This document shows, in pieces, positions 2,270-64,000 of a DNA stretch of 64,000 nt. The notes under the pieces were generated by a model. That model saw nothing but the letters and a program-made list of their open reading frames with translations, did not search any database and was not told the origin of the DNA. This DNA comes from Rhodobacterales bacterium (GTDB lineage Bacteria; Pseudomonadota; Alphaproteobacteria; Rhodobacterales; Rhodobacteraceae). Where the stretch lies: the NCBI GenBank assembly GCA_002748265.1, contig PDRY01000014.1:134418-198417 (forward strand). Direction: 5' to 3'. The translations under genes and the position numbers were made by a program. Numbering within the stretch: position 1 is the first letter of the stretch; each line of letters begins with the position of its first letter.

Positions 2270-3388
2270 TCAGACACGCATTGGCATGACGACATAGATC
2301 GCGCTGTCGTCGGAGCCCTCTTGCATCAGGGTCGGATCCCCAGAGGAATTGAACAGGAACACCGCGTTTTCGCGATCCACCTGATCCGCGATCTCCTTGA
2401 GGTATTTCGCGTTGAACCCGATCTCCAGCGGATCATCGGCATAGGCGACGGCCAGCTCTTCTTCGGCGTTGCCGCTGTCAGGGGCGTTCACGGACAGGAC
2501 CAGCCGGTCTTCGTCCAGAGCCATCTTCACGGCACGGGACCGCTCCGACGACACGGTGGAGACCCGGTCCACGGCGCGCGCGAACTCGGAGGCGTCCACC
2601 TCCATGCGGCGGGTGTTGGCCTGCGGGATAACGCGGGAATAGTCGGGGAAGGTGCCGTCAATGACCTTCGAGGTCAGGGTGATGGCTTCGGTGGCGAAGC
2701 GCACCTTGGTTTCCGACACCGATACCGCGATCGGGGTGTCGTCTTCTTCCAGCAGCTTGCGCAGCTCGCCGACGGTTTTGCGCGGCACGATCACGCCGGG
2801 CATGTCTTCCGCGCCTTCGGGGAGCGGCGCGTCAATCCGTGCCAGCCGGTGGCCATCGGTCGCCACGCAGCGCAGCACCCGGCCATCGGGGCCTTCGGCG
2901 ACATGCATGTAAACGCCGTTCAGGTAATAGCGGGTCTCTTCGGTCGAGATCGCAAAGCGGCTCTTGTCAAAAAGGCGGCGCAGCACCTCGGACTTGGCCG
3001 AGAAATTCGCCGTGTAGTCCGAAGACGCCATCACCGGGAAATCTTCCCGCGGGAGCGTGGCAAGCTGGAACTGAGACTTCCCGGCCTCGATCACCAGTCG
3101 CCCCTGGGCGCCGTCTTCGGACAGGGACACAAGCGCGCCATCGGGCAGCTTGCGGACAATCTCGTTGAGCGTCATGGCCGATACGGTGGTGGCACCTGCG
3201 CGTTCCACCATGGCGGGGGCCTGGTCCAGAACCTCGATGTCCAGATCGGTCGCCCGGAAATGGACCTTATCGCCTTCGGCCTCGATCAGCACGTTGGCGA
3301 GGATCGGGATCGTGTTGCGCCGCTCCACAACAGATTGCGCCTGTGCGACAGCTTTCAGAAGCGCGCCCCGTTCGATGCTGATCTTCAT
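2270..3388 (-). CDS. dnaN: DNA polymerase III beta sliding clamp
   Basis: MKISIERGALLKAVAQAQSVVERRNTIPILANVLIEAEGDKVHFRATDLDIEV... is a typical DnaN of ~372 aa, located between dnaA and recF. Confidence 0.92.
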   Translation of the reverse strand: MKISIERGALLKAVAQAQSVVERRNTIPILANVLIEAEGDKVHFRATDLDIEVLDQAPAMVERAGATTVSAMTLNEIVRKLPDGALVSLSEDGAQGRLVIEAGKSQFQLATLPREDFPVMASSDYTANFSAKSEVLRRLFDKSRFAISTEETRYYLNGVYMHVAEGPDGRVLRCVATDGHRLARIDAPLPEGAEDMPGVIVPRKTVGELRKLLEEDDTPIAVSVSETKVRFATEAITLTSKVIDGTFPDYSRVIPQANTRRMEVDASEFARAVDRVSTVSSERSRAVKMALDEDRLVLSVNAPDSGNAEEELAVAYADDPLEIGFNAKYLKEIADQVDRENAVFLFNSSGDPTLMQEGSDDSAIYVVMPMRV

Positions 3389-3550
3389 GTCTCTCTCCGT
3401 CACTCGCCGGTCCGGTTCAGGTTCCGGCAAGGTGGTGCAAACCAACCCTCCGGGGCGCCGACCCTACCCGGATCTTGCGCCAGAACAAGCGTTTTCAGTG
3501 CAAAATCGAACGGTAACGCTGCGGGGTCAAGCCCCACAGCGATCCTTCGG

Positions 3551-4888
3551 TCAGCTTTCCAGCGACCGGCGCAACAGCTCCAGATCATCTGCGATCTGGC
3601 TGTCGGTGGCTTTCAGCTCTTCGATCTTCTTGACGCCGTGCAGCACGGTCGTGTGATCGCGCCCGCCAAAGCGCCGCCCGATCTCGGGCAGGGAGCGGGA
3701 TGTCATCGTCTTGGACAGGTACATCGCCATCTGGCGAGGCCGGGCAAAGACGCGCTGACGGCGCGGGCCGATCATGTCCGCAAGGCGGATGTTGAAATGC
3801 TCGGACACTTTCCGCTGGATCTCTTCGATCGTGATCTTGCGATCCGAGGCGCGCAGAATGTCTGAGAGGCATTCCTGCGTCAGGTCCAGATCAATCTCGC
3901 GGCCCACAAGATGCGCAAAGGCAAAGAGCCGGGTCAGCGCGCCTTCCAGCACGCGCACATTGGTCGAAATCCGGTGGGCGAGGAATTCCAGCACGCCTTC
4001 ACCGATCTGCACATCGGGGTAGAAGTCGCGCTGCTGCTCGACCTTGGTGTGCAGGATACCAAGCCGCAGCTCGTAGTCGGTGGGGTGCAGGTCCACGACC
4101 AACCCGCATTGCAGGCGCGACGTGATCCTGGCCTCCAGGTCCTTGATCTCATCGGGGGCGCGGTCGGCGGAGATCACGATCTGCTTGCCGGCATCGACCA
4201 AAGCATTGAAGGTGTGGAAGAATTCTTCCTGAGTGGAGTTCTTCCCGGCGATGAACTGGACGTCATCGACCATCAGAACATCGACCGACCGGAAGAGCTG
4301 TTTGAAGTCGATCATCGCGTTGGAGCGGATCGCGGTCACAAAACGCACGATGAACTGATCGGAGGTGAGGTAGAGCACCTTCAGCTCGGGCCGCTTTTGC
4401 CGCATCTCATTGGCGATGGCGTGCATCAGGTGCGTCTTGCCGAGCCCGACACCGCCGTACAGGAACAGCGGATTGAAGGTCACGGGGCTGCCTTCCGCCA
4501 CGCGCAGGGCGGCCGAATAGGCCAGCTGGTTGGGCTTGCCGACGACGAAGCTGTCAAAGGTGAAGCGCGGGTCCAGGGGCGATCCCTCTTCGGCCTGCGC
4601 GGTGGGCTGGGTCGGAGCTGCCGCGGGCGCCTCGGGCGCGCTCGGCGCGGGTTGGCGCGCGGCGGCAAAAGACAATCGCCCGGCCTGCGCGCCAGAGCGA
4701 TTGATGTGATAGAGGATCTGTTCCCCAAAATTCTGGTTCACGTAGTTCCCGATGAAGGTTGTGGGCACTTCGAACTGTGCCACCCCATCTACCAGACCCT
4801 TAAAGTTCAGCGGCGCGATCCAATTGGAGTGATTGCTCTGTCCAACGGTGGCCTTGATGTCGTCGCTGACCTTGTCCCAGTTCACCAT
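3551..4888 (-). CDS. dnaA: Chromosomal replication initiator DnaA
   Basis: It has the AAA+ Walker A ([16 protein letters not shown]) and a C-terminal DnaA-box-binding HTH ([29 protein letters not shown]). The start at MVNWDKV (4888) was chosen; the 27-aa upstream extension lacks DnaA-like sequence. Confidence 0.92.
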
Positions 4889-5379
4889 TCTCGTTCGTCC
4901 CGTCCCATCGATCCATGGCCGTGGCTGTTGCCATTCGGCCTGCGCTTCGTTCGTCACTCTCAATCGCCACAAATAACCTGGCCGGCCGAAAGCGAGATCG
5001 GCCAGAAAACAGGTCAGCCCTGTGGCGGGCCGAAAGGCGCGAGCTCAGAAGATCTGAGCTGCCTGCGCCTCACGGCTCCGGGTTATAGGACACCAGACCT
5101 GCCGGAGCAGATCATTGCAGACATCCCCACTTCGGCTTTGCCGAAGCATTAAGCGGCGCGATGCGTTTGCCGAGTGATCCGTCCCTTGATCGTTTCGGCG
5201 GTGCTCTGGCCGCTTCCCCTAGAGCGATGTGAATCGCTCAAGCACGCTAGCAAGTCGGTCGGCGACGCATCAACACCAACATATGACTTGACGGGCCCGT
5301 GGATGAAAAAGAATCTCCGCCATTCTTTCAGGTGTCTGAAAATAAAGGAGATTGCTCTTCGTGCGACATTTGGCACACC

Positions 5380-5407
5380 AAAAAGGCGCGGGGTCTCCGC
5401 GCCTTTT
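5380..5407 (-). terminator. Rho-independent terminator of rpsT
   Basis: A perfect 7-bp GC stem (ggcgcgg / ccgcgcc) with a 5-nt loop is extended by A4/T4, and on the minus strand it is followed by a TTTTT run 45 nt downstream of the rpsT stop. Confidence 0.8.
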
Positions 5408-5451
5408 CAACAGACGATAATCTAGCGATTTGTTGGGAAAACAGCCCGGCT

Positions 5452-5715
5452 TTAGCCGAGCGCTTTGACCCGTGCGCTCAGGCGCGACATTTTGCGCGCT
5501 GCGGTGTTCTTGTGCATCACACCCTTGGTCACGCCGCGCATCAGCTCGGGCTGGAACGCGCGCAGAGCGGTTTGAGCAGCGTCAGAGCTGCCGGAGGCGA
5601 TCGCCTCTTCAACCTTGCGCAGGTAGGTGCGGATGCGCGAACGACGCGCTTTGTTCACTTCGGTGCGACGCTCCGCCTGGCGGGCGCGCTTTTTGGACTG
5701 GGGCGTATTGGCCAT
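5452..5715 (-). CDS. rpsT: 30S ribosomal protein S20
   Basis: [39 protein letters not shown]... is a basic 87-aa protein and a classic S20. Confidence 0.95.
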
Positions 5716-5799
5716 GCTGGTGCGGGCTCTCTGAGTCGTCTATCTGAAACCTGAAGCCGCGTCCTTAAGGGCGCGGCGGCAGGCTGTCAACAGGTTGCG

Positions 5800-6576
5800 T
5801 TACTTGTCGCGGAACTGAGGTTCGCGTTTTTCGCGGAAAGCTTCCATGCCTTCCTTCTGGTCTTCGGTCGAAAACAGCGCCTGGAACAGCCGCTTTTCGA
5901 ACCGGATCCCTTCGGCCAGGCTGGTTTCCAGCGCCGTGTTCACGGCCTCTTTCGCGGCCATGGAGGCGATCAGGCTCTTCCCGGAGATGCGGTTGGCGGC
6001 GTTAAGAGCTTCTTCTTTCAGCTTTTTACCCGGCACCACGCGGCTCACGAGGCCGGAGCGTTCGGCCTCTTCGGCGCCCATCATGCGGCCGGTCAGGTGC
6101 ATATCCATGGACTTGGCTTTGCCGATGGCATGGGTCAGGCGCTGCGTGCCGCCGATCCCGGCGATCACGCCCAGATTGATCTCGGGCTGGCCGAATTTGG
6201 CGTCTTCGCTGGCGATAATGAAATCGCACATCATGGCCAGCTCGCAGCCGCCGCCCAGAGCATAGCCGGACACTGCAGCGATGATCGGCTTGCGAATCGC
6301 ACCGACGCGGCGGTCGAAGCTGCCGAAGGATTCGTTGCGATACATGTCCACGAAGGACTGCTCTGCCATCTCGGTGATGTCGGCGCCGGCCGCAAAGGCC
6401 TTCTCCGATCCGGTGATGACAATCGCGCGCACCTTGTCGTTGGCGTCGGCGTCTTCCAACGCGTCGGCCAGCTCTCCCAGCAGGGCGGCGTTGAGCGCAT
6501 TGAGCGCGTCCGGTCGGTTGAGTGTGATCAGCGCCACGTGGTCGCTGATATCGACGATAATCGTCTCATAGGCCAT
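5800..6576 (-). CDS. Enoyl-CoA hydratase / crotonase family
   Basis: It has the crotonase fold signature AFAAGADI...VSGYALGGGCELAMMCD. The start at MAYETIIVD (6576) was chosen. Confidence 0.85.
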   Translation of the reverse strand: MAYETIIVDISDHVALITLNRPDALNALNAALLGELADALEDADANDKVRAIVITGSEKAFAAGADITEMAEQSFVDMYRNESFGSFDRRVGAIRKPIIAAVSGYALGGGCELAMMCDFIIASEDAKFGQPEINLGVIAGIGGTQRLTHAIGKAKSMDMHLTGRMMGAEEAERSGLVSRVVPGKKLKEEALNAANRISGKSLIASMAAKEAVNTALETSLAEGIRFEKRLFQALFSTEDQKEGMEAFREKREPQFRDK

Positions 6577-6639
6577 TTGTGGCACCTTTTTCTGTCCCGT
6601 CGAGGACTCAGCCTTACCAGCCAAGGCGCGGCGATCAAG

Positions 6640-7491
6640 CTATCTTTGGCACTTTGGGCAGGCATAGGTGGAGCGCCCGCCATGAGCGGTCCGCCGGATC
6701 GTGCCGCCACATCCGTCGCGCGGACAGGGGGCGCCTTCGCGGTCATAGACGCGGAAGCTGTGCTGGAAATATCCAAGCTCTCCATCAGCTTGCCGATAGT
6801 CGCGCAAGGATGACCCGCCCGCCGCGATGGCGTCCTGCAAGGTGGTTCGGATTTCCTGCACCAGCGTTTCAAGCCGCGCGTCGGAAATTCGGCCTCCCGC
6901 CCGGTTCGGATTGATCCCGGCACGGTGCAGAGCCTCGCAGACATAGATATTGCCCAGCCCGGCCACGATTCGCTGATCCAGCAGGAGCGTCTTGATCGGC
7001 GCGTTACGCCCGGCCAGCTTTGCGCCCAGCGTGGCCGCGTCAAAGCCGTTGCCCAAAGGTTCGGGCCCCAGCACCGCAATCAGCTTATGCGTGGTTTCCT
7101 GAGCGGTTGGAAACATGTCCATGGCCCCGAACCGGCGCGGGTCGTTGAACACGACTTTCGCGCCGCCTTCGATGTCCAGAATGACGTGATCGTGCTTTTG
7201 CGGCGCCGCGTGGTCGTGATGGAACAGCCCAAGCGGATCGCCCGAGACGGTGATGCGCCCCGACATGCCCAGATGGATCAGCAGCGTCTCATCCCCGTCC
7301 AGATCGGCCAGGATGTATTTCGACCGCCGCCGCAACCGATCAATCCGGCGCCCGGTGAGCCGCTCGGCCATCCGGTCGGGGAACGGCCAACGCAGGTCGG
7401 GCCGGTTGACCTGTGCACGCGCGATGCGGGCGCCGGTCAGGACGGGCTCAAGCCCCCGGCGGACGGTTTCGACCTCTGGTAATTCGGGCAT
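6640..7491 (-). CDS. mutM: Formamidopyrimidine-DNA glycosylase
   Basis: It has the N-terminal MPELPEVE catalytic motif with Pro2 and a C-terminal zinc finger ([27 protein letters not shown]). Confidence 0.92.
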
Positions 7492-7576
7492 GGTGCGACC
7501 TTATTCCTGTTCGACCCGGACTGTCCCCCGCGCCAGATGCCCTGTAAAGAGCTGGGGACAGATAAGGACAGGCGCG

Positions 7577-8326
7577 ATGAGCGACGATCAGAACACCACC
7601 CATTTCGGCTTTGAGACCGTGCAGGAGGCCGAAAAGGCCCCCCGCGTGCGCGGCGTCTTTGAAAGCGTCGCCTCGCGCTACGACGTCATGAATGACGCCA
7701 TGTCGATGGGGATTCACCGGCTCTGGAAAGATGCGATGATGGATTGGCTGTCGCCGCGTCCCGGTCAGCGTCTTTTGGACGTTGCGGGGGGCACCGGGGA
7801 CATTTCCTTCCGGTTCCTCAAACGCGCCGGTCATGGTCACGCCACCGTCCTGGACCTGACCGAACCCATGCTGGTCGAAGGCCGCAAACGCGCCGAAGCA
7901 GACCAGATGGCGGACAGTCTGGACTGGGTCGTGGGCGATGCCATGGCACTGCCCTTCGAAGACAACAGCTTTGATGTCTATACGATCAGCTTTGGCATCC
8001 GAAACGTGACCCGCCCGCAAGAGGCGCTCAACGAAGCCTACCGCGTGCTGCGTCCGGGGGGGCGGCTCATGGTGCTCGAATTCAGCCAGGTTCCGGTGCC
8101 GCTGCTGCAGAAGGTCTATGACCTCTACTCCTTCAATATCATCCCGCGCATGGGGCAGGCGATCGCCGGAGATCGCGACAGCTATCAGTATCTGGTCGAA
8201 TCCATCCGCCGTTTCCCGGATCAGGAGACGTTCCTGGGTATGGTCCGCACGGCCGGGTTTGAAAATGCTGCCTATCGGAACCTGACCATGGGCATTGCCG
8301 CGCTCCATTCCGGGTGGAAAATCTGA
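7577..8326 (+). CDS. ubiE: Ubiquinone/menaquinone C-methyltransferase UbiE
   Basis: [51 protein letters not shown]... carries the SAM-binding motif LDVAGGTGD. The longer ORF from 7250 overlaps mutM and is rejected. Confidence 0.9.
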
Positions 8327-17794: not shown

Positions 17795-18660
17795 GCCAGG
17801 ACCAGAACACAAAGCTGGGCATCTGGCTGATGGTGGCCACCACGCTGGTCTTTGCCAGCCAGGACGGGATCAGCCGCCATCTGGCCAGCACCTACAATGT
17901 GCTGATGGTGGTGATGATCCGCTACTGGTTCTTTGCCGCCTTCGTGATCGTTCTGGCCAAACGGCAAGTGGGCTCTGTCCGCGCTGCGGCAGCGACGAAG
18001 CAGCCGGTCCTGCAAGCGGTCCGAGGCGTTCTTCTGGTGGCCGAGGTCTGCGTGATGGTGCTGGGTTTCGTCCATCTCGGGCTGGTCGAAAGCCAGGCCG
18101 TGTTCGGCTGCTATCCGCTTCTGATCGCGGCGCTGTCGGGTCCGATCCTGGGCGAATCCGTCGGCTGGCGCAGATGGGTGGCCATCGGCATCGGAGCCGT
18201 CGGGGTGATGGTGATCCTCAACCCCGGATCGGGCGTGTTCGCCCCTGCGGCGGTGCTGCCTCTGGCGTCGGCCTTCATGTTTGCGCTCTACGGCCTTCTG
18301 ACGCGCTACGCGGCCCGCAAGGACAGCGCGGCGACATCGTTCTTCTGGACCGGCACCACCGGGGCCGTGGCAATCACCTTGGTTGGGCTGTGGGTCTGGG
18401 AGCCCATGACCGCCCACGATTGGCTGTGGATGGCGCTGCTTTGCGTCACTGGCGCGGGTGGGCATTTCCTGCTCATCAAGACCTACGAGGTCGCGGAGGC
18501 AAGCGCAGTGCAGCCCTTTGCCTTCCTCCAGATCGTGTTTGGCGCGCTGATCGGCATCACCGTGTTCGGAGAGATCTTGCGGCCCAACGTGGCTTTGGGC
18601 GCCGCCATCGTCGTGGGGGCGGGGCTGTTCACCCTGATGCGGGCGCGGCGCCGGGCCTAG
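17791..18660 (+). CDS. DMT-superfamily (EamA-like) transporter
   Basis: It has ~10 TM helices in a duplicated EamA-type arrangement. The GTG at 17791 overlaps the upstream stop; an alternative ATG lies at 17830. Confidence 0.7.
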   Translation: MSQDQNTKLGIWLMVATTLVFASQDGISRHLASTYNVLMVVMIRYWFFAAFVIVLAKRQVGSVRAAAATKQPVLQAVRGVLLVAEVCVMVLGFVHLGLVESQAVFGCYPLLIAALSGPILGESVGWRRWVAIGIGAVGVMVILNPGSGVFAPAAVLPLASAFMFALYGLLTRYAARKDSAATSFFWTGTTGAVAITLVGLWVWEPMTAHDWLWMALLCVTGAGGHFLLIKTYEVAEASAVQPFAFLQIVFGALIGITVFGEILRPNVALGAAIVVGAGLFTLMRARRRA

Positions 18661-19163
18661 CGGCGATGCTCCGGGCGGTGGCGCCCCGGCGCGAAGCGTT
18701 CCCGGGAACGGAGCTCACGCTCCAGCCGGTCGGCAAAGGCGGCGCGCTCCTCGGCAGGCATGGCGGAGAGCCGCGCGCTCAGCGCGCCCGTGCCCGCCTG
18801 GGCCCAATTGTCGGCGCGGGCGCGCTGCCGGGCCAGCAGCTCTGTGAAGGCGGCGTCATCGAACGGATCGGCGCGCAGAAGCTCCAGCATCTTGGCCAGC
18901 TCGCCGCCCCGAGCGCTGCGCGTCTGAGGGCTGGGCCGGTCGCCGCGGGCGATTTCGGCGCGGATGGTCTGGCCGATGGCGCGGCGATCATCCTCGCTCA
19001 GCGCGCGGGTGAGGGGGCCAAGGCTCAGGTCCACGGCGCGGGGATTGCGCCCGTCGGGGCCGTTGAGAATCGCGCCGAGGATCAGCCCGATCACCAGAAC
19101 GTTCAGGGCCAGAGAAATCGGCAGGATGATGCGCCGCAGGCGCGAGGGCTTGGGGGGCTCCAT
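18657..19163 (-). CDS. Periplasmic heavy-metal-sensor/Spy-CpxP-like protein (third gene of the ECF sigma operon)
   Basis: It has an N-terminal TM/signal (ILPISLALNVLVIGLILGAIL) followed by a helical region with repeated L/R/E/A motifs (LTRAL...RAEIARG...LLARQRARADNWA) typical of the CpxP/Spy-like periplasmic sensor family. The position after the anti-sigma gene supports the call. Confidence 0.55.
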   Translation of the reverse strand: MEPPKPSRLRRIILPISLALNVLVIGLILGAILNGPDGRNPRAVDLSLGPLTRALSEDDRRAIGQTIRAEIARGDRPSPQTRSARGGELAKMLELLRADPFDDAAFTELLARQRARADNWAQAGTGALSARLSAMPAEERAAFADRLERELRSRERFAPGRHRPEHRR

Positions 19164-20137: not shown

Positions 20138-20644
20138 TCAGTTATGACCGCCGCGATAGCCGTGGCCGCCATGACCGCGCCGGTCGCCCCGACGATCATC
20201 CCGACGGTCGCCGCGCTGCATCCGATCGGCGAGAGCCTCGAACTCCTCTTCGCTGATGGCGCCATCGCCATCTTTGTCGAGCCGTTCGAACATCGTGGTC
20301 TCATTCTGACCCTTGGGGCCGACCATCTCTTCGATCTGGATCAGACCGTCATCGTTCTCGTCCATCATCTCGATCATCCGCTCCGCGCGGCGCGCCTGGC
20401 GGTTCGCGATGATCTCCTCTGCGCTCAGCCCGCCATCGTTGTTGCTGTCGACTTCTGCGAAATCGGCCTCTTTCTTGGCCATCAGCTCGGCCGGGGTGAT
20501 CTGGCCGTCGCCATTGGTGTCGAGATCAGAGAAGCTGGGAGGGGCCTGCCGCGACATGCCGCCGAACGGGTCGGCCGACGCGGCGCTGACCAGCAGCCCG
20601 GCGGAGATGGCAGAAATCAGAAGCGTGGTTTTCAGCTTGGTCAT
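20138..20644 (-). CDS. Secreted EF-hand calcium-binding protein
   Basis: It has a signal peptide (MTKLKTTLLISAISAGLLVSAASA). Four EF-hand-like loops are present (DTNGDGQITPAE, DSNNDGGLSAEE, DENDDGLIQIEE, DKDGDGAISEEE). The tail is RGD/RRD/His-Gly-rich low complexity. Confidence 0.8.
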   Translation of the reverse strand: MTKLKTTLLISAISAGLLVSAASADPFGGMSRQAPPSFSDLDTNGDGQITPAELMAKKEADFAEVDSNNDGGLSAEEIIANRQARRAERMIEMMDENDDGLIQIEEMVGPKGQNETTMFERLDKDGDGAISEEEFEALADRMQRGDRRDDRRGDRRGHGGHGYRGGHN

Positions 20645-24666: not shown

Positions 24667-26262
24667 CGCGCCCTGCGCGACCCACAGCTCCACCCGCCGG
24701 TTGGTCTGCCGTCCCCAATCGCTGTCGTCGCAGGCCAGCGGAAGCGCTTCGCCAAAGGCGTCGATCTCCAGCGAAACGCCGTCGGGCAGCCCGTCGCTCA
24801 GCACGTTCAGAAGCTGCCGCCGGACGCTTTCCGCCCGCGCCAGAGACAGGCTGCGATTGGCTTCGGCCGGGCCCACGCCGTCGCTGAACCCCACAAGGAA
24901 CAGCCGGGCGCCTTGGTATTCGCCATCGCGGATCGCCCGGCCCAGTTGCAGCATGTTCGATCGGGACTGCGCGTCCAGCCGGGTCGATCCGGGCGTGAAG
25001 CGGAACGTGGTGGAGAGCCTCTGACGCCGCGAGAGCTTGCCCACCATGTCCTGCAGGTTGGCCAGGCTGATCTCTTCGCCCGCGACAAGGATTGCGCGGG
25101 CCAGCCGGTCCCCTTGCCGAGAGAGCGGCACTGGCACCGGACCGCGATCCACGAACCCGGCGCGGCGCACGATCTTCTGGGCTTCGCTGCTGCGTAGCCA
25201 GGCGAGCCACGCGCTTGCCTCCGGGGCCATGCGGCGCTCCGGGAGGTAGATGAACAGAGGGCGGGTGAGCGTGTAATCTTCGGTCTTGAGCGACAGAAGA
25301 TTTGCGTCCGACACCATGCCGCAACTGCCGCCCAGAGGCAGCGGCCGCGCCAGCCCGTGATTGCGATAGGGCGCCACGCCCACGGCGCCCGCGTCTTGCG
25401 CGACGGCGGTGGTCATGGCGTCGGTCGTGTCGTGGAACTGGACAGTGTCCGACAAGGTCACGCCTGCCGGGGTCAGCACCCCGTCGATGAACCCTTGCAC
25501 GTCGCCCGACTGCTCAGGCCCGAGGTGCAGCTTGACCGGTCCGGGGGCCAGCCCAAGCTGCGCCCAATCGGTGATCGTGCCCGCGAACAGGCCCGCCAGC
25601 TCCGTGGGGGTCAGCGGGCGTAGAAGCCTGCGGGGCGATCCCACCGGCACAAGCGCATCAAGCGCGACGATCTCGCTCCGGCGGGCGTCGGACAACCGGC
25701 CCAGCCCGGCTTCGGAGCCCTGGCGCGCCTCTTCGGGGCGGATCTCGCGCACGGAGAGCGCGGCGTCCGCCTGGTTGGAGAACAGGTCAGCAAAGCCTTC
25801 GTCGCTCGTGCCGACATGGAAGCTGAACCGCAGCACCGGCAGTCCGCTGCTCGCGTCTTCGACATCGTATTCGAAGTGGAGCGGGTCGACCTCCCGCCGC
25901 ACGGCGCGCAGGCCGCGCGTGCGGGCGTAGCCTTCGATCAGTGCGGGCATCAGAACGTCCGACATGCGCGCGGCGCCAGACAGGCGCAGGCGAGGGACGT
26001 AGTCCTCGGGATCGGGGCACAGGGCGCCCTCGCATTCCGTATGATCGTAACGCAGCGTCACCTCTCCGGCATCGGTCATGAGCCGCAGGAAGGTGCCGTC
26101 AAACCCCAGGATATCGCCCGAGACGGCGGTGCCGCCGTGGGTGATCGTCACCGGCTCTGCCCGCGCAGGGGCGGCGCTGACCGCAAGTGTGCAAAGAAAA
26201 AGTGCGGCGAACTGAGTCGCCGCACGTCCAAACCGTCTGTGCCAGGGGTCGTCGCGCGTCAT
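24658..26262 (-). CDS. Phosphate-binding (PstS-like PBP) domain / OmpA C-terminal domain fusion protein
   Basis: A signal peptide is followed by a central PstS/PBP-like domain (TDAMTTAVAQDAGAVGVAPY). The C-terminal OmpA-like peptidoglycan-binding domain is GFSDGVGPAEANRSLSLARAESVRRQLL...NRRVELWV. Confidence 0.7.
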   Translation of the reverse strand: MTRDDPWHRRFGRAATQFAALFLCTLAVSAAPARAEPVTITHGGTAVSGDILGFDGTFLRLMTDAGEVTLRYDHTECEGALCPDPEDYVPRLRLSGAARMSDVLMPALIEGYARTRGLRAVRREVDPLHFEYDVEDASSGLPVLRFSFHVGTSDEGFADLFSNQADAALSVREIRPEEARQGSEAGLGRLSDARRSEIVALDALVPVGSPRRLLRPLTPTELAGLFAGTITDWAQLGLAPGPVKLHLGPEQSGDVQGFIDGVLTPAGVTLSDTVQFHDTTDAMTTAVAQDAGAVGVAPYRNHGLARPLPLGGSCGMVSDANLLSLKTEDYTLTRPLFIYLPERRMAPEASAWLAWLRSSEAQKIVRRAGFVDRGPVPVPLSRQGDRLARAILVAGEEISLANLQDMVGKLSRRQRLSTTFRFTPGSTRLDAQSRSNMLQLGRAIRDGEYQGARLFLVGFSDGVGPAEANRSLSLARAESVRRQLLNVLSDGLPDGVSLEIDAFGEALPLACDDSDWGRQTNRRVELWVAQGALQ

Positions 26263-27206
26263 CTTGCGGCAACAGTCCGGTCCGACACCATGTTTTGCAA
26301 GATCAAAAACTCGCCCACGGAATCGCAGCCGGGAACCGTCATTGTGAGGTCACGGGTCTCGAGCCCGGACGGCCCGGTTTGCAGCGATTGGGCCGCGATT
26401 TCGCCGCCGCAGGTGGCGTCGATAACCTCGGCTTCGACGCTCAAGGCGATCTGCCCGTCGCGGGGAGAGGTTTCGGCAGGGTAGGTGTAGACCTCAGCCA
26501 GAAGCGCGCGCTCCAGCGTCGGATCGCCAAGCTGGGTAAACACGCCGCCGGACATGCTCGCATCGGGCGCATCGCGCCACACGTGACCGGCGGTGAAGTA
26601 GGCGGCGCCGAATTCGCGCGCATGAAGCTGAAGCCCGGTTTCCCCCTGCCATTGCAGAGCGACCCGGTCCAGATCCGCCATGTCGGGCAGGGAAAGCCGC
26701 GCCACGGCGCCTTCGCCGTCGCTCAGGGCAACGATGAAGCTGGCGTCTTCGGTCAGGGCGGGGACGGACAATTCTGCCGCGCCTTGGTCGTCCAAGGCGA
26801 TGGCGAACATCATGCCGCGATGGTGGATCGTGGCGCGCTGTCCGGCATGGCACGGGGCTGAAACGTCGAGCTCGGCAAAGGCCAGCGGCGCGGCTGTTGC
26901 GGAAAGCGCCACTGTGCAGTCCAGCTCGGCCACGGGTGCGGCTGCCATGTCCTCCGGCAGAGCGGCGCTCAGGCCCTTGGGCAAGGCGGCCAGCACGAGC
27001 GGCAGCGAGGGGAGGGGCAAGGCGGGCAGAAGGTCCGCACCCAGCACGAAAGACGCGTGCTGCGGCGGCGTGCTCAGGTTTTCCGGCAGCACCGGCGCAA
27101 CGCTCAGGCGCTCCGCCTGTGCTTCGCCATTTTGCATGGTGAAGCCGATCCCGACCGCCACGGCAAATGTGCCTGCGGCAACAGCAAGCTTCTTGAGACC
27201 TGACAT
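26259..27206 (-). CDS. Hypothetical exported protein (operon partner of the PBP-OmpA fusion)
   Basis: A signal/TM after MSGLKKLAVAAGTFAVAVG is followed by an Ala/Leu-rich region with no recognisable domain. Its stop overlaps the start of the downstream gene (ATGA). The start at 27206 was chosen because of the AAGGGA SD-like element upstream. Confidence 0.5.
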   Translation of the reverse strand: MSGLKKLAVAAGTFAVAVGIGFTMQNGEAQAERLSVAPVLPENLSTPPQHASFVLGADLLPALPLPSLPLVLAALPKGLSAALPEDMAAAPVAELDCTVALSATAAPLAFAELDVSAPCHAGQRATIHHRGMMFAIALDDQGAAELSVPALTEDASFIVALSDGEGAVARLSLPDMADLDRVALQWQGETGLQLHAREFGAAYFTAGHVWRDAPDASMSGGVFTQLGDPTLERALLAEVYTYPAETSPRDGQIALSVEAEVIDATCGGEIAAQSLQTGPSGLETRDLTMTVPGCDSVGEFLILQNMVSDRTVAAR

Positions 27207-27332
27207 GATTCTATCCCTTCGCATATTGCGACGGTGCTAGAATGCTCCCCTTCGGTGGCGTCCGAAGGACGGACGGAAGAAGAAGGCGAGGTCAAATCAG
27301 GGCGAAGTTGTGACAGGCCGGGTCGCGGCCGG

Positions 27333-46135: not shown

Positions 46136-47677
46136 CTATGTCAGAAGGGCTTCGATCTGGTCCACATAAGGGGCAAAGCCCCCTTGCTCCGCCGCCATCT
46201 TGCGCAGCATTCGCCGCCGGGCGGGGGGCCAGGCCTCAAGCGTTTCAAGCGCTGCGCGGACATAGGCGTCTTGATCGCCGGGCGTGATAAAGGTGCCCGC
46301 GGGCTTGGCCAGATCGAGGATCCCCAGATCGGAGCGATATCCGACGAAAGGCGTGCCGCAGAACGCGGCATCGAGCACGGTCGCCGGACCGGGGTCTTGC
46401 CGCGACGTGAGCAGGTAGACATCCGCCTGCGCATACCAAGCGGGCGCATCCTCTACGAAGCCGGGAAGGATCAGGTCGAGATCGGGCGCGGCGGCGGCCA
46501 GTTCCTGCGCCCAGCCCGTCAGAGCGCCCAGCCAGACAAAGCGCGCCTCCAAACATTGCGCCTGAATGGCTCGCGCGGCGTCAAGGAACAGATCGAACCC
46601 CTTGCGGTGGTCCGCGTGACCGGCCCCCAAGAACACCGGCCCGCCCCCGATCCGGTCGCGCACTGCCCGCCGCGCCGCCAGCCCGGCGGGCTGCACCGCG
46701 ATGCCGGGGCGGATGATCGTCGTCGGCGCGTTCAGCATCGGCGCCAGCCCATCGGCCACCGCCGGGAAAGACGCCACGATCCGCGCGCCCGCGGCTTCCG
46801 CGCCGCGCAGCGCCGCGCCCAGATCGCGGGCTTCGACATGCGCTGCCATTTCATGGACCAGAAGCGCCCCTACCCGGTCGCCAGACAGGAGATCCGGCGC
46901 AAATCGTGCTGTTTCGACAGAGTTCAGCAGCACTGTCACCTCGGGCGGGATCCCTTGCGCCAGCCCTGGCACGTCCCAACCTTCCGCAATGATAAAGCAG
47001 GGTCCGAGCGCGCGGAACTCCGGCAGCAGCGGACCGGCCTGATCCAGAAGGAAGACCGGCGACCAGCCCCGTTCGCGTAGCGCCAAGGACAGGTTGCGCA
47101 GCAGGATCGGGGCGCCAGCCTTTCGGGCATCATGGGCGACCATGACGACGACGCGGCCATCGGGCAAAGCCGCGCGCATCGCTTCCGCCGATTGCGCGGC
47201 ATCCTTTGGCTCTGGCCGGGGCAGAAACCCGGCCTGTGCGCCGTGTGTCACGTAGTGTCGGAAGGCCTGCCCGGTTTCCAGCGGCAGATAGGCGCGCGCG
47301 TAGAAAACGGGATCGAACCCGTGGGAGGGCGCGCGGCCTTCGCGGTCTCCGTGGCGGATGAAGTGCAGCAGGAGCGGATCGGCCAGACCGGCGAGGTCTG
47401 GATTGAGCGCCCGGTATTCGTCCGGCACGAAGAGCGGATGCGGCTGGCGTTCTTCCCCGCGTGTGAGCCGCCTGAGGTAGTCATCCATCGCCGTGGGCGC
47501 GCCCTGGTCGGCCCAATCGGGATAGCGCGTCTTGTAGAAGGTGGTCGAAAAATAGGGCGAGGGGTCGCGTCCCTCCGCATCCCCTTCCCGCCGGAAATGT
47601 CGCAGCGGGGCCGACACGGCCGCGCCCGCAAGGCTGGACAGGTAGAATTCCGTGTCGAACAGGGGGTGGTTGGTCAT
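46136..47677 (-). CDS. Glycosyltransferase (GT4-like C-terminal domain) with an N-terminal domain of four ~38-aa tandem repeats
   Basis: The C-terminal half has a GT-B/GT4-like donor-binding region (FVWLGALTGW...YAQADVYLLTSRQDPGPATVLDAAFCGTPFVGYRSD). The N-terminal ~150 aa consist of four repeats of the form P-x-F-x(3)-(F/Y)Y-x(4)-(Y/N)PD-x(7,9)-P-L-x-H(F/Y)-x(3)-G-x(2)-EGR-x-PS. Confidence 0.65.
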   Translation of the reverse strand: MTNHPLFDTEFYLSSLAGAAVSAPLRHFRREGDAEGRDPSPYFSTTFYKTRYPDWADQGAPTAMDDYLRRLTRGEERQPHPLFVPDEYRALNPDLAGLADPLLLHFIRHGDREGRAPSHGFDPVFYARAYLPLETGQAFRHYVTHGAQAGFLPRPEPKDAAQSAEAMRAALPDGRVVVMVAHDARKAGAPILLRNLSLALRERGWSPVFLLDQAGPLLPEFRALGPCFIIAEGWDVPGLAQGIPPEVTVLLNSVETARFAPDLLSGDRVGALLVHEMAAHVEARDLGAALRGAEAAGARIVASFPAVADGLAPMLNAPTTIIRPGIAVQPAGLAARRAVRDRIGGGPVFLGAGHADHRKGFDLFLDAARAIQAQCLEARFVWLGALTGWAQELAAAAPDLDLILPGFVEDAPAWYAQADVYLLTSRQDPGPATVLDAAFCGTPFVGYRSDLGILDLAKPAGTFITPGDQDAYVRAALETLEAWPPARRRMLRKMAAEQGGFAPYVDQIEALLT

Positions 47678-61979: not shown

Positions 61980-62471
61980 TTACTGGGTCGAGGAGGCGGT
62001 CGGCAGAAGCACGGTGTCGATCACGTGGATCACGCCGTTGCGGGCCTCGATGTCGGCGGTGACGACTTTGGAGTTGTTCACCATGACGCCGTTATCCAGA
62101 TCGACGGTCACGGTGGCACCGGCGTTCAGGGTCGGAGCCTTCATGTCATCCACCAGGTCGGTGGACATCACCTTCCCGTCCACGACGTGATACAGAAGGA
62201 TGCCCTTCAGCGTATCGGTGTCTTCGAGCAGGCCCTCAACGGTCCCGGCCGGAAGCTTGGCGAACGCGTCATCGGTCGGAGCGAAGACGGTCAGCGGACC
62301 ATCCCCGGTCAGCGCACCCACGAGCCCTGCGGCTTCGGCCGCGGCGAGCAGGGTGGTGAAGCTGCCGGCCTCCTGGGCGGTCTCCACGATATTCTTGCCG
62401 TGACCATCCGCAGCGGCGGCGCCGGCGATCAGGGTGGCCGCAGCGGCGGTCAGTGCGATTTTGCGAAGCAT
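61980..62471 (-). CDS. Fasciclin (FAS1) domain protein, secreted
   Basis: It has a signal peptide ([21 protein letters not shown]) and a FAS1 domain ([22 protein letters not shown]...[11 protein letters not shown]). The start at 62471 was chosen. Confidence 0.85.
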
Positions 62472-62726
62472 GTCATTTCTCCCTTGGTGACTGCGGGGCA
62501 GGGAACCCCGCCGGTACACTAAGGGTGGCGCTGCGCTTGCCCTTGGGGAAGGAGCCTCTCGGGAATGTCAGCTCAATAAACTGTCATGGAACCATCCGGC
62601 GGCTGCACGCGTTGATAAGGCCTTACCAGACAATTTTGCCCCCCGCTGACGCTTCGTGCGGGTGCCCCCCGTCTGCAGAATCTCGCGTATACATATAAGG
62701 AGTGCTCCCGGAGGCCGCTGTGAGGG

Positions 62727-62932
62727 GGATTCTGCACGAGGCGGAGCGATTCATTACATCAAGCGACTCGGAATCGGGGCGACTCGTCGTGAATCGTCGG
62801 CCGCCTCCCCCTGAATCGGGGGGCTCTTCGATTTTTTTTCGTGAATCAGGCGGTCGAACGAGTCGGAATCGGCCGACTGACTCGCGCGATTCACGTCTTT
62901 CGAGTCGGATTCTTGTAGTTGCTTGTGGATAA
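62727..62932. promoter_or_regulatory. Dense GANTC (CcrM methylation motif) cluster with repeated CGTGAATC motif, T8 tract and a perfect DnaA box
   Basis: Fourteen GANTC sites were counted between 62727 and 62911. CGTGAATC occurs at 62787 and 62839, and inverted at 62887, with a CTGAATC variant at 62810. A T8 tract lies at 62831-62838. TGTGGATAA (62924-62932) is the perfect DnaA-box consensus and is followed by a degenerate repeat TGTGGGAAA. Confidence 0.6.
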
Positions 62933-63092
62933 CTCTGTGGGAAACCCAAAATCTGGGATTTGGCCCATGCTGCGCCCGCGAAGAAAGTTGCGTCGTGACC
63001 CGGGGTCGGTGAAACATGCTTAATCCAACCCCCTGAAAAACAGGGAAAAACGGGGTTTGTCACAAAAAATGCGAATTTCTTGAAAAAAGCTC

Positions 63093-63121
63093 TTGCGGGG
63101 TCCGGCCGCAAACCGTAGATA
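63093..63121 (+). promoter_or_regulatory. Candidate sigma-70 rRNA operon promoter with upstream A-tract (UP-like) element
   Basis: TTGCGG (63093-63098), a 17-nt spacer and TAGATA (63116-63121) lie ~420 nt upstream of the 16S 5' end. They are preceded by the A-rich segment aaaaaatgcgaatttcttgaaaaaag. Confidence 0.4.
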
Positions 63122-63282
63122 CCCCCTCACCGGCGGCGCTGAGGCGCCAACGGGACGCCCACCGGGCCAGACGGAAACGCTCTTCGGAGCCACCCAGACG
63201 GAAACGAGGCGGACGAGATCGGAAGCAATCAAGGCGGGGCGCGCCGAGAAGTTAGGGCGCACTCAGTCGGTTTTTGGTCTCA

Positions 63283-63542: not shown

Positions 63543-64000
<458 letters not shown>

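Follow-up and report, generated by a model that had tools for sequence, protein, structure and literature searches.

The locus

The window analysed here is a stretch of 64,000 nucleotides from a Rhodobacterales bacterium (contig PDRY01000014.1), and all coordinates refer to it. It ends inside a 16S rRNA gene, which is the only known RNA family that an Rfam scan found. Upstream of this gene are the rrn leader and core promoter, a candidate second promoter, a pair of predicted DnaA boxes and a cluster of sites for the CcrM-type motif GANTC. The features are as follows.

61980..62471, minus strand: fasciclin-domain gene, a neighbour outside the element
62678..62682, no strand: outlying GANTC site (GAATC), 46 bp upstream of the array
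62728, 62748, 62765, 62771, 62781, 62791, 62813, 62843, 62860, 62866, 62879, 62888, 62902, 62908: starts of the 14 GANTC sites
62764..62775, no strand: double site CGACTCGGAATC, copy 1 of 3, with two GANTC 6 bp apart
62788 and 62840: 8-mer CGTGAATC, two direct copies
62803..62839, plus strand: terminator-like hairpin with GANTC in the loop, then the T8 tract (pattern scan)
62811: CTGAATC variant
62832-62839: T8 tract
62859..62870, no strand: double site CGAGTCGGAATC, copy 2 of 3, a two-GANTC unit
62888: GATTCACG, the inverted copy of CGTGAATC
62901..62912, no strand: double site CGAGTCGGATTC, copy 3 of 3, the promoter-proximal end of the array
62924..62932, plus strand: perfect DnaA box TGTGGATAA (other strand TTATCCACA)
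62936..62944, plus strand: degenerate DnaA box TGTGGGAAA, second of the pair (12-bp register)
62945..62958, plus strand: conserved block CCCAAAATCTGG after the DnaA boxes (consensus cCc..a.At.t.G in a 17-locus alignment)
62988..63015, plus strand: candidate upstream promoter P1 (TTGCGT at 62988-62993, 15 nt, GTGAAAC at 63009-63015)
63035..63090, plus strand: A-tract-rich, UP-element-like region upstream of P2, with GAAAAACAGG twice in tandem
63093..63121, plus strand: rrn core promoter P2 (TTGCGG at 63093-63098, 17-nt spacer, TAGATA at 63116-63121)
63123..63139, plus strand: conserved rrn leader 17-mer CCCCTCACCGGCGGCGC, the positional anchor for every comparison
63543..64000, plus strand: 5' part of the 16S rRNA gene, truncated by the window end (Rfam RF00177, 438.6 bits)

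P2 is strongly kept in every related locus that we compared. P1 is a candidate for a second, upstream rrn promoter, suggested by its sequence: about 10 of the 17 aligned loci have a block aaaGTTGCG, which is like the -35 context of P2, and its distance to the boxes is constant. A scan with the E. coli-type sigma-70 consensus returned nothing, and both promoters were defined by conservation instead. The array ends 181 bp before the -35 element of P2 and 76 bp before that of the candidate P1. Short-read contigs of the source and of related strains end at P2 or right after it.

A preliminary description of this DNA placed the element upstream of a predicted rrn promoter. This agrees with the position of P2, roughly 170 bp downstream of the DnaA box. 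The same description took the fasciclin gene to be convergent, but this gene is on the minus strand and divergent from rrn. The GANTC block is therefore upstream of both the fasciclin gene and rrn.

A dense cluster of GANTC sites

The core of our finding is that 14 GANTC sites occur within 185 bp (62728-62912), the same number on recounting as was first reported. Local base composition predicts 0.66 sites in a stretch of this length, and the window's own background rate predicts 0.23. The earlier estimate of less than one site by chance thus holds (0.2-0.7 per 185 bp), and the Poisson tail for 14 sites is about 1e-20. The supposition that GANTC is normally depleted is matched in the window, which contains 95 sites in total, a three-fold depletion relative to the 294 +/- 16 in dinucleotide-preserving shuffles, and each of 100 shuffles of the whole window exceeded 95. 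Against this background the array is a clear outlier in density, given that any other 185-bp stretch in the window has at most three sites.

The 12-nt double sites, present in three copies, are the only recurring units in the array. Their copies are 95 and 42 bp apart, which corresponds to approximately nine and four helical turns. The 8-mer copies (two direct, one inverted), the CTGAATC variant and the T8 tract that had been listed before were all located, as were the perfect DnaA box and the degenerate repeat, at 62924 and 62936. The outlying site is GACTC in strain L083, a substitution at the free N that keeps the site.

Conservation among relatives

We gathered 31 rrn-upstream regions by means of the leader 17-mer or the fasciclin gene, and never by means of the array. 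In this array-independent sample, most Roseobacteraceae loci have an equivalent array upstream of the rrn promoter, with 3-17 GANTC sites at the same distance to that promoter. The proposed check in related genomes therefore found the array at orthologous positions. Between -200 and -350 from the anchor, the 31 loci have about two GANTC per 50 bp per locus, as compared to 0.04-0.1 upstream of -350. From -150 to 0 the number is close to zero, and one locus alone has any. GANTC is the most enriched gapped pentamer in the array zone (7.5-fold, with the runner-up at 2.9-fold).

The array is kept without alignable sequence between its sites. Median identity of array zones between loci is 0.60, versus 0.59 in a shuffled control. 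Near-identical strains differ by 6-7 substitutions within the array; all existing sites survive these, and one substitution adds a new site. A small ORF or sRNA inside the block was rejected as a candidate for lack of sequence conservation between the sites. Some lineages have a smaller array; for example, Jannaschia sp. KMU-145 and Silicimonas have 3-4 sites and no boxes.

Nearly all arrays that we found belong to one orthologous locus, with the order clpB-fasciclin-msrP-msrQ-array-rrn. In relatives, msrP, msrQ and sometimes an MFS transporter are located between the fasciclin gene and the array. The idea that all rrn copies have such an array was considered and rejected, since most of the seemingly distinct contexts proved to be the msrQ locus with inserted genes. 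Partial modules occur upstream of rrn on the plasmids pSMR1-2 and pRSMBA and on the TM1040 megaplasmid. The array is missing from most plasmid-borne Roseobacteraceae rrn copies and from two metagenomic rrn loci in other contexts. Ten outgroup plasmid-borne rrn copies (Thioclava, Haematobacter, Rhodobacter, Cereibacter, Ensifer, Phyllobacterium, Rhizobium, two Azospirillum and Acetobacter) have neither an array nor a positioned DnaA box. An array required for rrn promoter activity in general would be expected at every copy.

Helical phasing and register

Spacings between pairs of GANTC sites peak at 10-12, 20-23, 32-33, 42-43 and 53 bp. At a period of 10.6 bp the mean cosine is 0.36 (z = 12-15); two null models gave about -0.04, and 2000 null runs all stayed below the observed value. 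Given this period and about one site per turn, the GANTC sites are on one face of the DNA. Tandem duplication was rejected as the source of the periodicity, since a search within the array found no tandem repeat.

The sites also share a register with the promoter anchor across loci (R = 0.43, p ~7e-18). Their register relative to the DnaA box gives R = 0.56. Arrays that lack a box, including one on a plasmid, have this same promoter register (V-test p = 2.5e-5), and the phase also recurs in other genomic contexts. GASTC and GAWTC sites are in phase with each other (p ~1e-6), and the phased unit is the GANTC class itself. Outside GANTC, A/T dinucleotides are weakly phased (R = 0.165, n = 1055) and share the register of the sites, with G/C-rich patterns in antiphase.

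DnaA boxes

The box at 62924 is the sole perfect DnaA box in 64 kb, and a scan of the window found none upstream of dnaA. Beyond the pair, no further box with at most one mismatch is present in the region, and no IHF consensus was apparent by eye downstream of the boxes. A DnaA box with at most one mismatch occurs at -185 to -222 from the leader anchor, in constant orientation, in 20 of the 31 loci, and 11 of these 20 boxes are perfect. The tandem pair in 12-bp register is found in 16 of the 31 loci, and which member of the pair is perfect differs from locus to locus. About a third of the arrays in the 31 loci have no recognisable DnaA box.

Motif flanks and GcrA

Across 204-230 sites, information is confined to GANTC and to a weak Y at -1 and R at +5, i.e., a palindromic YGANTCR. 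All four bases occur at the centre, and there is no orientation bias. Given the palindromic flanks and the lack of such a bias, we rejected the idea that the GANTC sites are directional weak DnaA boxes.

In Rhodobacteraceae, GANTC is m6A-methylated (PMC8919816, PMC5583230, PMC5786225), and Rhodobacterales have both ccrM and gcrA (PMC2877005). For methylation of the array sites, these m6A reports and the depletion of GANTC in the window are indirect evidence. GcrA is a dimer that binds methylated GANTC, contacts RNA polymerase via sigma-70 and covers more than 40 nt of fully methylated DNA (PMC3667746, PMC4647560). Its preference is for YGAKTCK (PMC4647560). The sites studied here match this preference only in part: 78% have Y at -1 and 44% have K at +5, and most GAGTC sites match, whereas most GATTC sites deviate. 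CGATTCA, the form seen most often, is similar to sites that rank low in Caulobacter.

The Caulobacter promoters regulated by CcrM and GcrA (ctrA P1, mipZ and others) have in common with the array the motif GANTC and the occurrence of its m6A form, ccrM and gcrA in the respective taxa (PMC8919816, PMC2877005). The logic by which origin distance sets the duration of hemimethylation at a site also fits here (PMC3667746), and how strongly a site is methylated in alphaproteobacteria with CcrM varies with its origin distance and with growth rate (bioRxiv 10.64898/2026.05.23.720832). The arrangement differs, however. GcrA-activated Caulobacter promoters have GANTC within or beside the -35/-10 elements (PMC4647560) and one to few sites, whereas here 3-17 phased sites are located 90-400 bp upstream of the candidate promoters and no GANTC lies within or beside these elements of P2 or P1. 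We found no report of an rRNA promoter as a CcrM/GcrA target in the literature searched.

Position relative to the replication origin

The genes dnaN and dnaA are at 2270-4972, and the distance from the array to dnaA is ~55-60 kb. GC skew is below zero at 1-3 kb, and between about 8 kb and 64 kb it is positive. After removal of the gene-strand effect, the replication component of the skew over 8-62 kb is positive (bootstrap 95% CI 0.007-0.034), also at third codon positions (95% CI 0.009-0.065) and in both halves of this region. The positive skew implies that forks traverse the region from the left. The change of sign is at ~3-8 kb, next to dnaN and dnaA, and genes diverge in orientation there as well; the proposed GC-skew check therefore puts the array off the switch.

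Interpretation

With moderate confidence, we interpret the block as an upstream control region of the origin-proximal rrn operon in this marine Roseobacter-group bacterium, a region that is read by a GANTC/m6A-binding factor together with DnaA. One part would be the GANTC array of ~190 bp, on one face and in a fixed register with the rrn promoter, and the other part two predicted DnaA boxes in 12-bp register at the end of the array that is nearer to the promoter. A reader of methylated or hemimethylated GANTC would bind cooperatively along this face and bend or wrap the DNA. The sigma-70 cofactor GcrA is the sole known candidate for this role. The reader complex and DnaA, if bound to the boxes, could then raise or lower transcription from P2 and the candidate P1. 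At ~55-60 kb from dnaA, the array should be replicated early and, if methylated, should therefore be hemimethylated for most of S phase, and it could thereby signal the state of replication or the growth rate to the rRNA promoter. Of the readings first proposed for this DNA, a methylation-dependent switch that couples rRNA transcription to replication is the best supported. Its structural part stands: relatives keep the array upstream of rrn, with helical phasing and a common register to the promoter. The methylation of these sites, the reader and the effect on transcription are parts that we infer.

Some observations fit this control-region reading poorly. The array is ~215-400 bp upstream of the P2 start site, in contrast to the -35/-10 position of GANTC in GcrA-activated Caulobacter promoters, and the fit to YGAKTCK is partial. 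Nearly all arrays are at one orthologous locus, most plasmid-borne rrn copies and two metagenomic loci have none, and some lineages have just 3-4 sites and no boxes.

E. coli SeqA binds GATC clusters at oriC and the dnaA promoter that have helical spacing, are near DnaA boxes and are hemimethylated after replication. The array likewise consists of dense sites of a maintenance adenine methylase, clustered at helical-repeat spacing beside DnaA boxes. The motif and the methylase differ, however, and the array is upstream of rrn instead of at the origin or the dnaA promoter. SeqA homologues are not known from alphaproteobacteria. Tentatively, roseobacters could have a SeqA-like GANTC system, in which a new protein, or GcrA oligomerising in a new mode, binds one face of the phased hemimethylated array cooperatively, and the wrapped nucleoprotein complex so formed gates the box pair and the main rRNA promoter. 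If so, the replication state near the origin, and so growth rate, would be read out as rRNA synthesis, DnaA availability or both.

The main rival is a DnaA-regulating locus near the origin, similar to datA or DARS, which we consider rather unlikely. The box pair, aided by a nucleoprotein structure on the phased array, would titrate, inactivate or reactivate DnaA, with timing set by hemimethylation after early replication, and the adjacent rrn would be incidental or merely a source of strong transcription nearby. The locus may also be an auxiliary DnaA-titrating element, which was the weaker form of an earlier origin proposal. E. coli datA, DARS1 and DARS2 and the B. subtilis DnaA-box clusters are intergenic and tens of kb away from the origin, and their high-affinity boxes have a conserved arrangement. 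Here, position and orientation of the box pair are strongly kept in 20 of 31 loci, the pair includes the only perfect box of the window, where none precedes dnaA, and the array is phased a little more closely with the boxes (R = 0.56) than with the promoter anchor (R = 0.46). The module is also essentially limited to one orthologous locus ~55-60 kb from dnaA, and most secondary or plasmid-borne rrn copies are without it. However, datA and DARS have at least three DnaA boxes in defined arrangements plus IHF or Fis sites, whereas this locus has two boxes, no recognisable IHF site, a methylation array and a fixed distance to a promoter. Moreover, about a third of the arrays are box-less and nevertheless in promoter register, the distance of boxes and array to the rrn promoter is conserved, and the GANTC sites, with their palindromic flanks and unbiased central base, do not behave as directional weak boxes. 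A purely structural element is improbable. Modelled on the curved DNA upstream of E. coli rrn P1, phased GAWTC and A/T dinucleotides would bend the DNA to wrap RNA polymerase or a nucleoid protein, and methylation would have no role. The weak phasing of A/T dinucleotides outside GANTC in the same register, the antiphase of G/C-rich patterns and the location upstream of a strong promoter with A-tracts would be expected of such an element. By contrast, GASTC, which lacks the central A/T step, is equally phased in the same register, and the enrichment is specific to GANTC (7.5-fold, against at most 2.9-fold for other gapped pentamers). GANTC is also an odd choice for bending, because it is avoided in the rest of the genome. 

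The E. coli rrnB P1 upstream region, with phased Fis sites, an UP element and curved DNA, resembles this locus: in both, repeated sites are located upstream of an rRNA core promoter with A-tracts and are helically phased with it, and the array locus may also have tandem P1 and P2 promoters. The repeated unit of rrnB P1 is a Fis site, whereas that of the array is a methylation site; the array extends much further upstream, and it is mainly at one rrn locus (msrQ-adjacent), not at all copies.

Two further proposals of the preliminary description fare worse. That the array region is the chromosomal oriC, with boxes, a methylation cluster, an A+T-rich stretch and a strong adjacent promoter, is very unlikely. 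Caulobacter Cori combines DnaA boxes, GANTC sites, CtrA boxes and a strong adjacent promoter, and apart from the CtrA boxes the locus shares this combination. Its boxes are a pair in 12-bp register, the locus is conserved and near dnaA, and an A+T-rich stretch occurs between the boxes and P2 in several relatives, although it is weak in this window. Box-based origin predictors, as in PMC6699656, could well pick the region. However, the replication skew is positive over 54 kb to the left, in both halves, and switches near dnaA instead of at the array. In addition, partial modules occur beside plasmid-borne rrn operons, whose plasmids have replicons of their own, DnaA boxes are missing from a third of the loci, and no CtrA box (TTAA-N7-TTAA, at most one mismatch) was found near the element. 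In Dinoroseobacter shibae, the origin has been placed between dnaA and parA (PMC5786225). The other proposal, a binding array for a regulator that recognises CGTGAATC, we regard as scarcely credible. The window does contain the 8-mer three times without mismatch, twice direct and once inverted, plus one variant, and GAKTCAC-type sites recur in some relatives. These sites nevertheless amount to just ~15% of the total, and CGTGAATC is not conserved across the 204-230 sites; relatives keep only GANTC with the weak YGANTCR flank, all four central bases occur, and GASTC has the same phase.

Regulation by GANTC methylation in alphaproteobacteria has so far been known from single sites within promoters. 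In the literature searched, we found no prior description of a conserved, phased GANTC array of up to 17 sites, nor of one located next to both the main rRNA operon and a positioned pair of DnaA boxes. If functional, the array would join CcrM epigenetics, DnaA and growth-rate control of ribosome synthesis, mostly treated as separate subjects, in the Roseobacter group, which is among the most abundant marine bacteria, and it would do so in a compact, testable piece of DNA of ~250 bp. In Rhodobacteraceae genomes, origin predictors based on DnaA boxes may wrongly call this region oriC.

A hairpin within the array

The hairpin at 62803-62839 matches the pattern of an intrinsic terminator, but its fold is no stabler than that of shuffled sequences (z = -0.9), and we rejected it as a terminator. 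L006 has a terminator hairpin 3' of msrQ at the equivalent position, again with GANTC in the loop. The hairpin in the window may be a relic of the terminator of msrQ, the upstream gene having been lost here.

The GANTC array and its neighbourhood

Fourteen GANTC (CcrM-type) sites occur within the 185 bp from 62728 to 62912, upstream of an rrn core promoter. The base composition of this stretch predicts 0.66 sites and the background rate of the window predicts 0.23; elsewhere in the window, no more than 3 fall within any 185 bp. The whole 64-kb window contains 95 sites versus 294 ± 16 in dinucleotide-preserving shuffles, so GANTC is avoided about three-fold. Such depletion typically marks alphaproteobacteria with CcrM, as reported, for example, for Ensifer (PMC8725594). 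The preliminary description, which had noted an extreme GANTC cluster, was correct. The elements that it listed are also present: the 8-mer CGTGAATC at 62788 and 62840, an inverted copy at 62888, a CTGAATC variant at 62811, a T8 tract at 62832-62839, the perfect DnaA box TGTGGATAA at 62924 (the sole perfect one in the 64-kb window) and the degenerate repeat TGTGGGAAA at 62936. By contrast, the fasciclin gene had been described as convergent with rrn, which is wrong.

Features around the array
61980-62471, minus strand: fasciclin gene, divergent from rrn
63093-63121, downstream of the array block: rrn core promoter (TTGCGG at 63093-63098, 17-nt spacer, TAGATA at 63116-63121)
63123-63139: conserved rrn leader 17-mer
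from 63543, downstream of the array block: 16S gene

We compared positions 62472-62727 with six related loci (L006, L225-L229), in which a glutamate-synthase-like gene, msrP and msrQ lie between the fasciclin gene and the array. These three genes are lost or moved in the window genome, so that the fasciclin gene directly abuts the array. In L006, the msrQ terminator hairpin (4060-4110) has a GANTC in its loop.

Conservation in related bacteria

A first set of loci was gathered via the fasciclin gene. The exact fasciclin protein was found only on one short Logan contig, which matches the window exactly and stops at 63156; the nearest named relatives are Pseudooctadecabacter, Jannaschia and Gymnodinialimonas (69-74% identity). 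Two near-identical strains (L082, L083) have 15 GANTC sites each, and L084, a relative at 85% identity, has 5 sites plus a pair of DnaA boxes. There are 11 sites in Cognatiyoonia, 9 in Yoonia maricola, 6 in Y. tamlensis, 10 in an uncultured isolate, 8 in one MAG, and 7 sites with DnaA boxes in L228 and L229. Silicimonas (4 sites) and Jannaschia sp. KMU-145 (3 sites) lack boxes. The order is msrP, msrQ, sometimes other genes, array and rrn, and in all of these loci the cluster lies upstream of rrn rather than beside fasciclin.

For sampling independent of the array, metagenome contigs were scanned for the leader 17-mer, which yielded around 27 matches in a Rhodobacteraceae rrn promoter context. 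The other matches were unrelated coding sequence, with 0-4 GANTC per 200 bp. Conservation, which the preliminary description had proposed as a check, is evident when 31 non-redundant regions upstream of rrn, from related Roseobacteraceae, are pooled. Relative to the leader 17-mer (the anchor), GANTC is concentrated at -150 to -400; each locus averages about 2 sites per 50 bp between -200 and -350, 0.04-0.1 further upstream and approximately zero from -150 to 0. Among gapped pentamers, GANTC is the most enriched in the array zone (7.5-fold; the runner-up reaches 2.9-fold). Median identity between loci in this zone is 0.60 versus 0.59 when shuffled, so the sites were maintained while their surroundings diverged. 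Among three near-identical strains, the 6-7 substitutions in the array include none that removes a site, one that creates a site and one that changes the free central base of an outlying site.

With few exceptions, the arrays sit at a single orthologous locus with the order clpB, fasciclin, the glutamate-synthase-like gene, msrP, msrQ, in some cases an inserted gene, array and rrn. Several seemingly different genomic contexts proved to be this same locus. Other rrn copies were as follows.

Other rrn copies
Pseudosulfitobacter plasmid pSMR1-2: 6 GANTC, phased and in register; no DnaA boxes
Rhodovulum plasmid pRSMBA (L210): 2 GANTC; tandem DnaA-like pair TGTGGAAAA-CTC-TTGGGATAA
Ruegeria sp. TM1040 megaplasmid (L214): 2 GANTC; two TGTGGGTAA, 21 bp apart
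Five other Roseobacteraceae plasmid copies: no array; no DnaA boxes
L173 (other context): array of 6 GANTC; no DnaA boxes
L124 and L139 (other contexts): none, or 3 dispersed GANTC; no DnaA boxes

In ten further plasmid-borne copies (Paracoccaceae, Rhizobiales, Azospirillum and Acetobacter), both the array and a positioned box are missing. Short-read contigs of the window strain, L084 and Y. tamlensis end at the core promoter, from which it follows that other rrn copies (their own or those of other sampled species) share sequence only from the promoter onwards.

Helical phasing and the recognition unit

Distances between GANTC pairs within arrays peak at 10-12, 20-23, 32-33, 42-43 and 53 bp, and the strongest Fourier component of the spacing is 10.5-10.6 bp, a periodicity that the preliminary description did not mention. 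The phasing statistic is 12-15 SD above two nulls (jittered gaps and random placement within an equal span), and 0 of 2000 runs reached the observed value. No tandem repeat was found in the array. Across loci, sites pile up at about -193, -204, -214.5, -225, -236, -247 and -257 from the anchor (R = 0.43, p ~7e-18), and arrays without DnaA boxes, including a plasmid-borne one, share this register (V-test p = 2.5e-5). Coherence is R = 0.56 relative to the promoter-proximal DnaA box and 0.46 relative to the anchor, so coupling to the box and coupling to the promoter are inseparable.

GASTC and GAWTC sites share one phase (p ~1e-6). From -400 to -180, across the array zones of all loci, A/T dinucleotides outside GANTC have a weak 10.6-bp periodicity that coincides with the phase of the sites, and G/C-rich patterns run in antiphase. 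The pattern suggests DNA that bends in a preferred direction around a protein surface and matches that seen in DNA wrapped around a protein.

Outside the pentamer, the sites show no more than a weakly preferred palindromic flank (YGANTCR), and their central base is not biased in orientation. The recognized unit is therefore the CcrM site itself. It is not CGTGAATC, the 8-mer for which an unknown regulator had been suggested, nor a directional weak DnaA box. In the upstream region of another locus (L203), a perfect palindrome (GATTCACCCGG...CCGGGTGAATC) has two GANTC sites as its arms.

DnaA boxes and promoters

A DnaA box with at most one mismatch occurs at -185 to -222 in 20 of the 31 loci, always in the same orientation, and is perfect in 11 of these 20. 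A tandem pair in 12-bp register is present in 16 of 31, and which member is perfect varies. An alignment of 17 loci defined four conserved blocks.

Conserved blocks
Block 1: box pair, then CCCAAAT.T.G
Block 2: aaaGTTGCG about 40 bp further on (62988-63015 in the window), candidate second promoter
Block 3: A-tracts
Block 4: core promoter and leader

The conserved aaaGTTGCG, together with the GTGAAAC after it, may act as an additional rrn promoter (P1) upstream of the core promoter; the two would then be arranged in tandem as in E. coli. Within the A-tract region, GAAAAACAGG is a 2.1-copy tandem repeat (63035-63055). The leader (63123-63160 and all related loci) opens with CCCCTCACCGGCGGCGC, which hardly varies between loci, and continues with a short GC-rich inverted repeat, GGCGGCGCTGAGGCGCC; together they may be a processing or antitermination signal.

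Position relative to the replication origin

Genes at the left end of the window
2270-3445, minus strand: dnaN
3551-4972, minus strand: dnaA
after dnaA, minus strand: rpsT, enoyl-CoA hydratase, mutM
from 7578, plus strand: ubiE, ubiB (stretch considered ends at 8326)

GC skew is negative at 1-3 kb, flat at 3-8 kb and positive from 8 kb to the window end. We separated replication and gene-strand components using 22 plus-strand and 15 minus-strand genes at 8-62 kb. Replication contributes +0.020 across all positions (bootstrap 95% CI 0.007-0.034) and +0.037 at third codon positions (CI 0.009-0.065), and its contribution is positive in each half, so the plus strand is the leading strand throughout. 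Forks reach the array from the left, and the array lies ~55-60 kb into the right replichore.

The skew sign change at 2270-8326 and the divergence of gene orientation at ~7.5 kb indicate that the true origin probably lies within this stretch or immediately to its left. For Dinoroseobacter shibae, an origin between dnaA and parA has been reported (PMC5786225). The gene content of the window includes no parAB, hemE or gidAB between the dnaA region and the array, and the 479 bp that separate rpsT from dnaA (4973-5451) contain no DnaA box that differs from TGTGGATAA by at most one base.

Possible functions of the array

As a cis-element, the array region is conserved and geometrically precise, and it is linked to the origin-proximal rrn operon. 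Likely components are described in the literature: GANTC is m6A-methylated in Rhodobacteraceae (PMC8919816, PMC5583230, PMC5786225), ccrM and gcrA are present in Rhodobacterales (PMC2877005), and the GcrA dimer binds methylated GANTC, extends across >40 nt when the DNA is fully methylated and contacts RNA polymerase via sigma-70 (PMC3667746, PMC4647560). How strongly a site is methylated varies with its distance from the origin and with growth rate (bioRxiv 10.64898/2026.05.23.720832). Our preferred model, to which we give roughly even chances, is that a methylation-reading nucleoprotein complex would form on one face of the array and, together with DnaA at the box pair, would match the transcription of rRNA to growth rate or to the state of replication.

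The array lies far from the core promoter and is absent from most secondary rrn copies, and both observations speak against a role as a simple promoter activator. They leave in contention a DnaA-regulating locus resembling datA or DARS, a reading that we consider rather improbable. The remaining readings are less likely than either of these. That the array is purely structural and only bends the DNA seems unlikely. That it is the true oriC, as the preliminary description had offered, is very unlikely given that forks arrive from the left, that the replication skew is positive in both halves of 8-62 kb and that the skew switch falls beside dnaN and dnaA (3-8 kb), away from the array. Least credible is a regulator recognizing CGTGAATC, since the 8-mer is not the recognized unit.

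Regulation via methylation sites and DnaA boxes is known, whereas the architecture and target of this array are unreported in the literature searched; full-text searches found no description of a comparable GANTC array.

Other genes in the window

Three minus-strand ORFs with coding-like third-position G+C (18657-19163, 26259-27224 and 46136-47677) have no NCBIfam match. A small protein encoded at 20138-20644 (minus strand) exhibits weak matches to the calcium-binding EF-hand families XopAW and lanmodulin.
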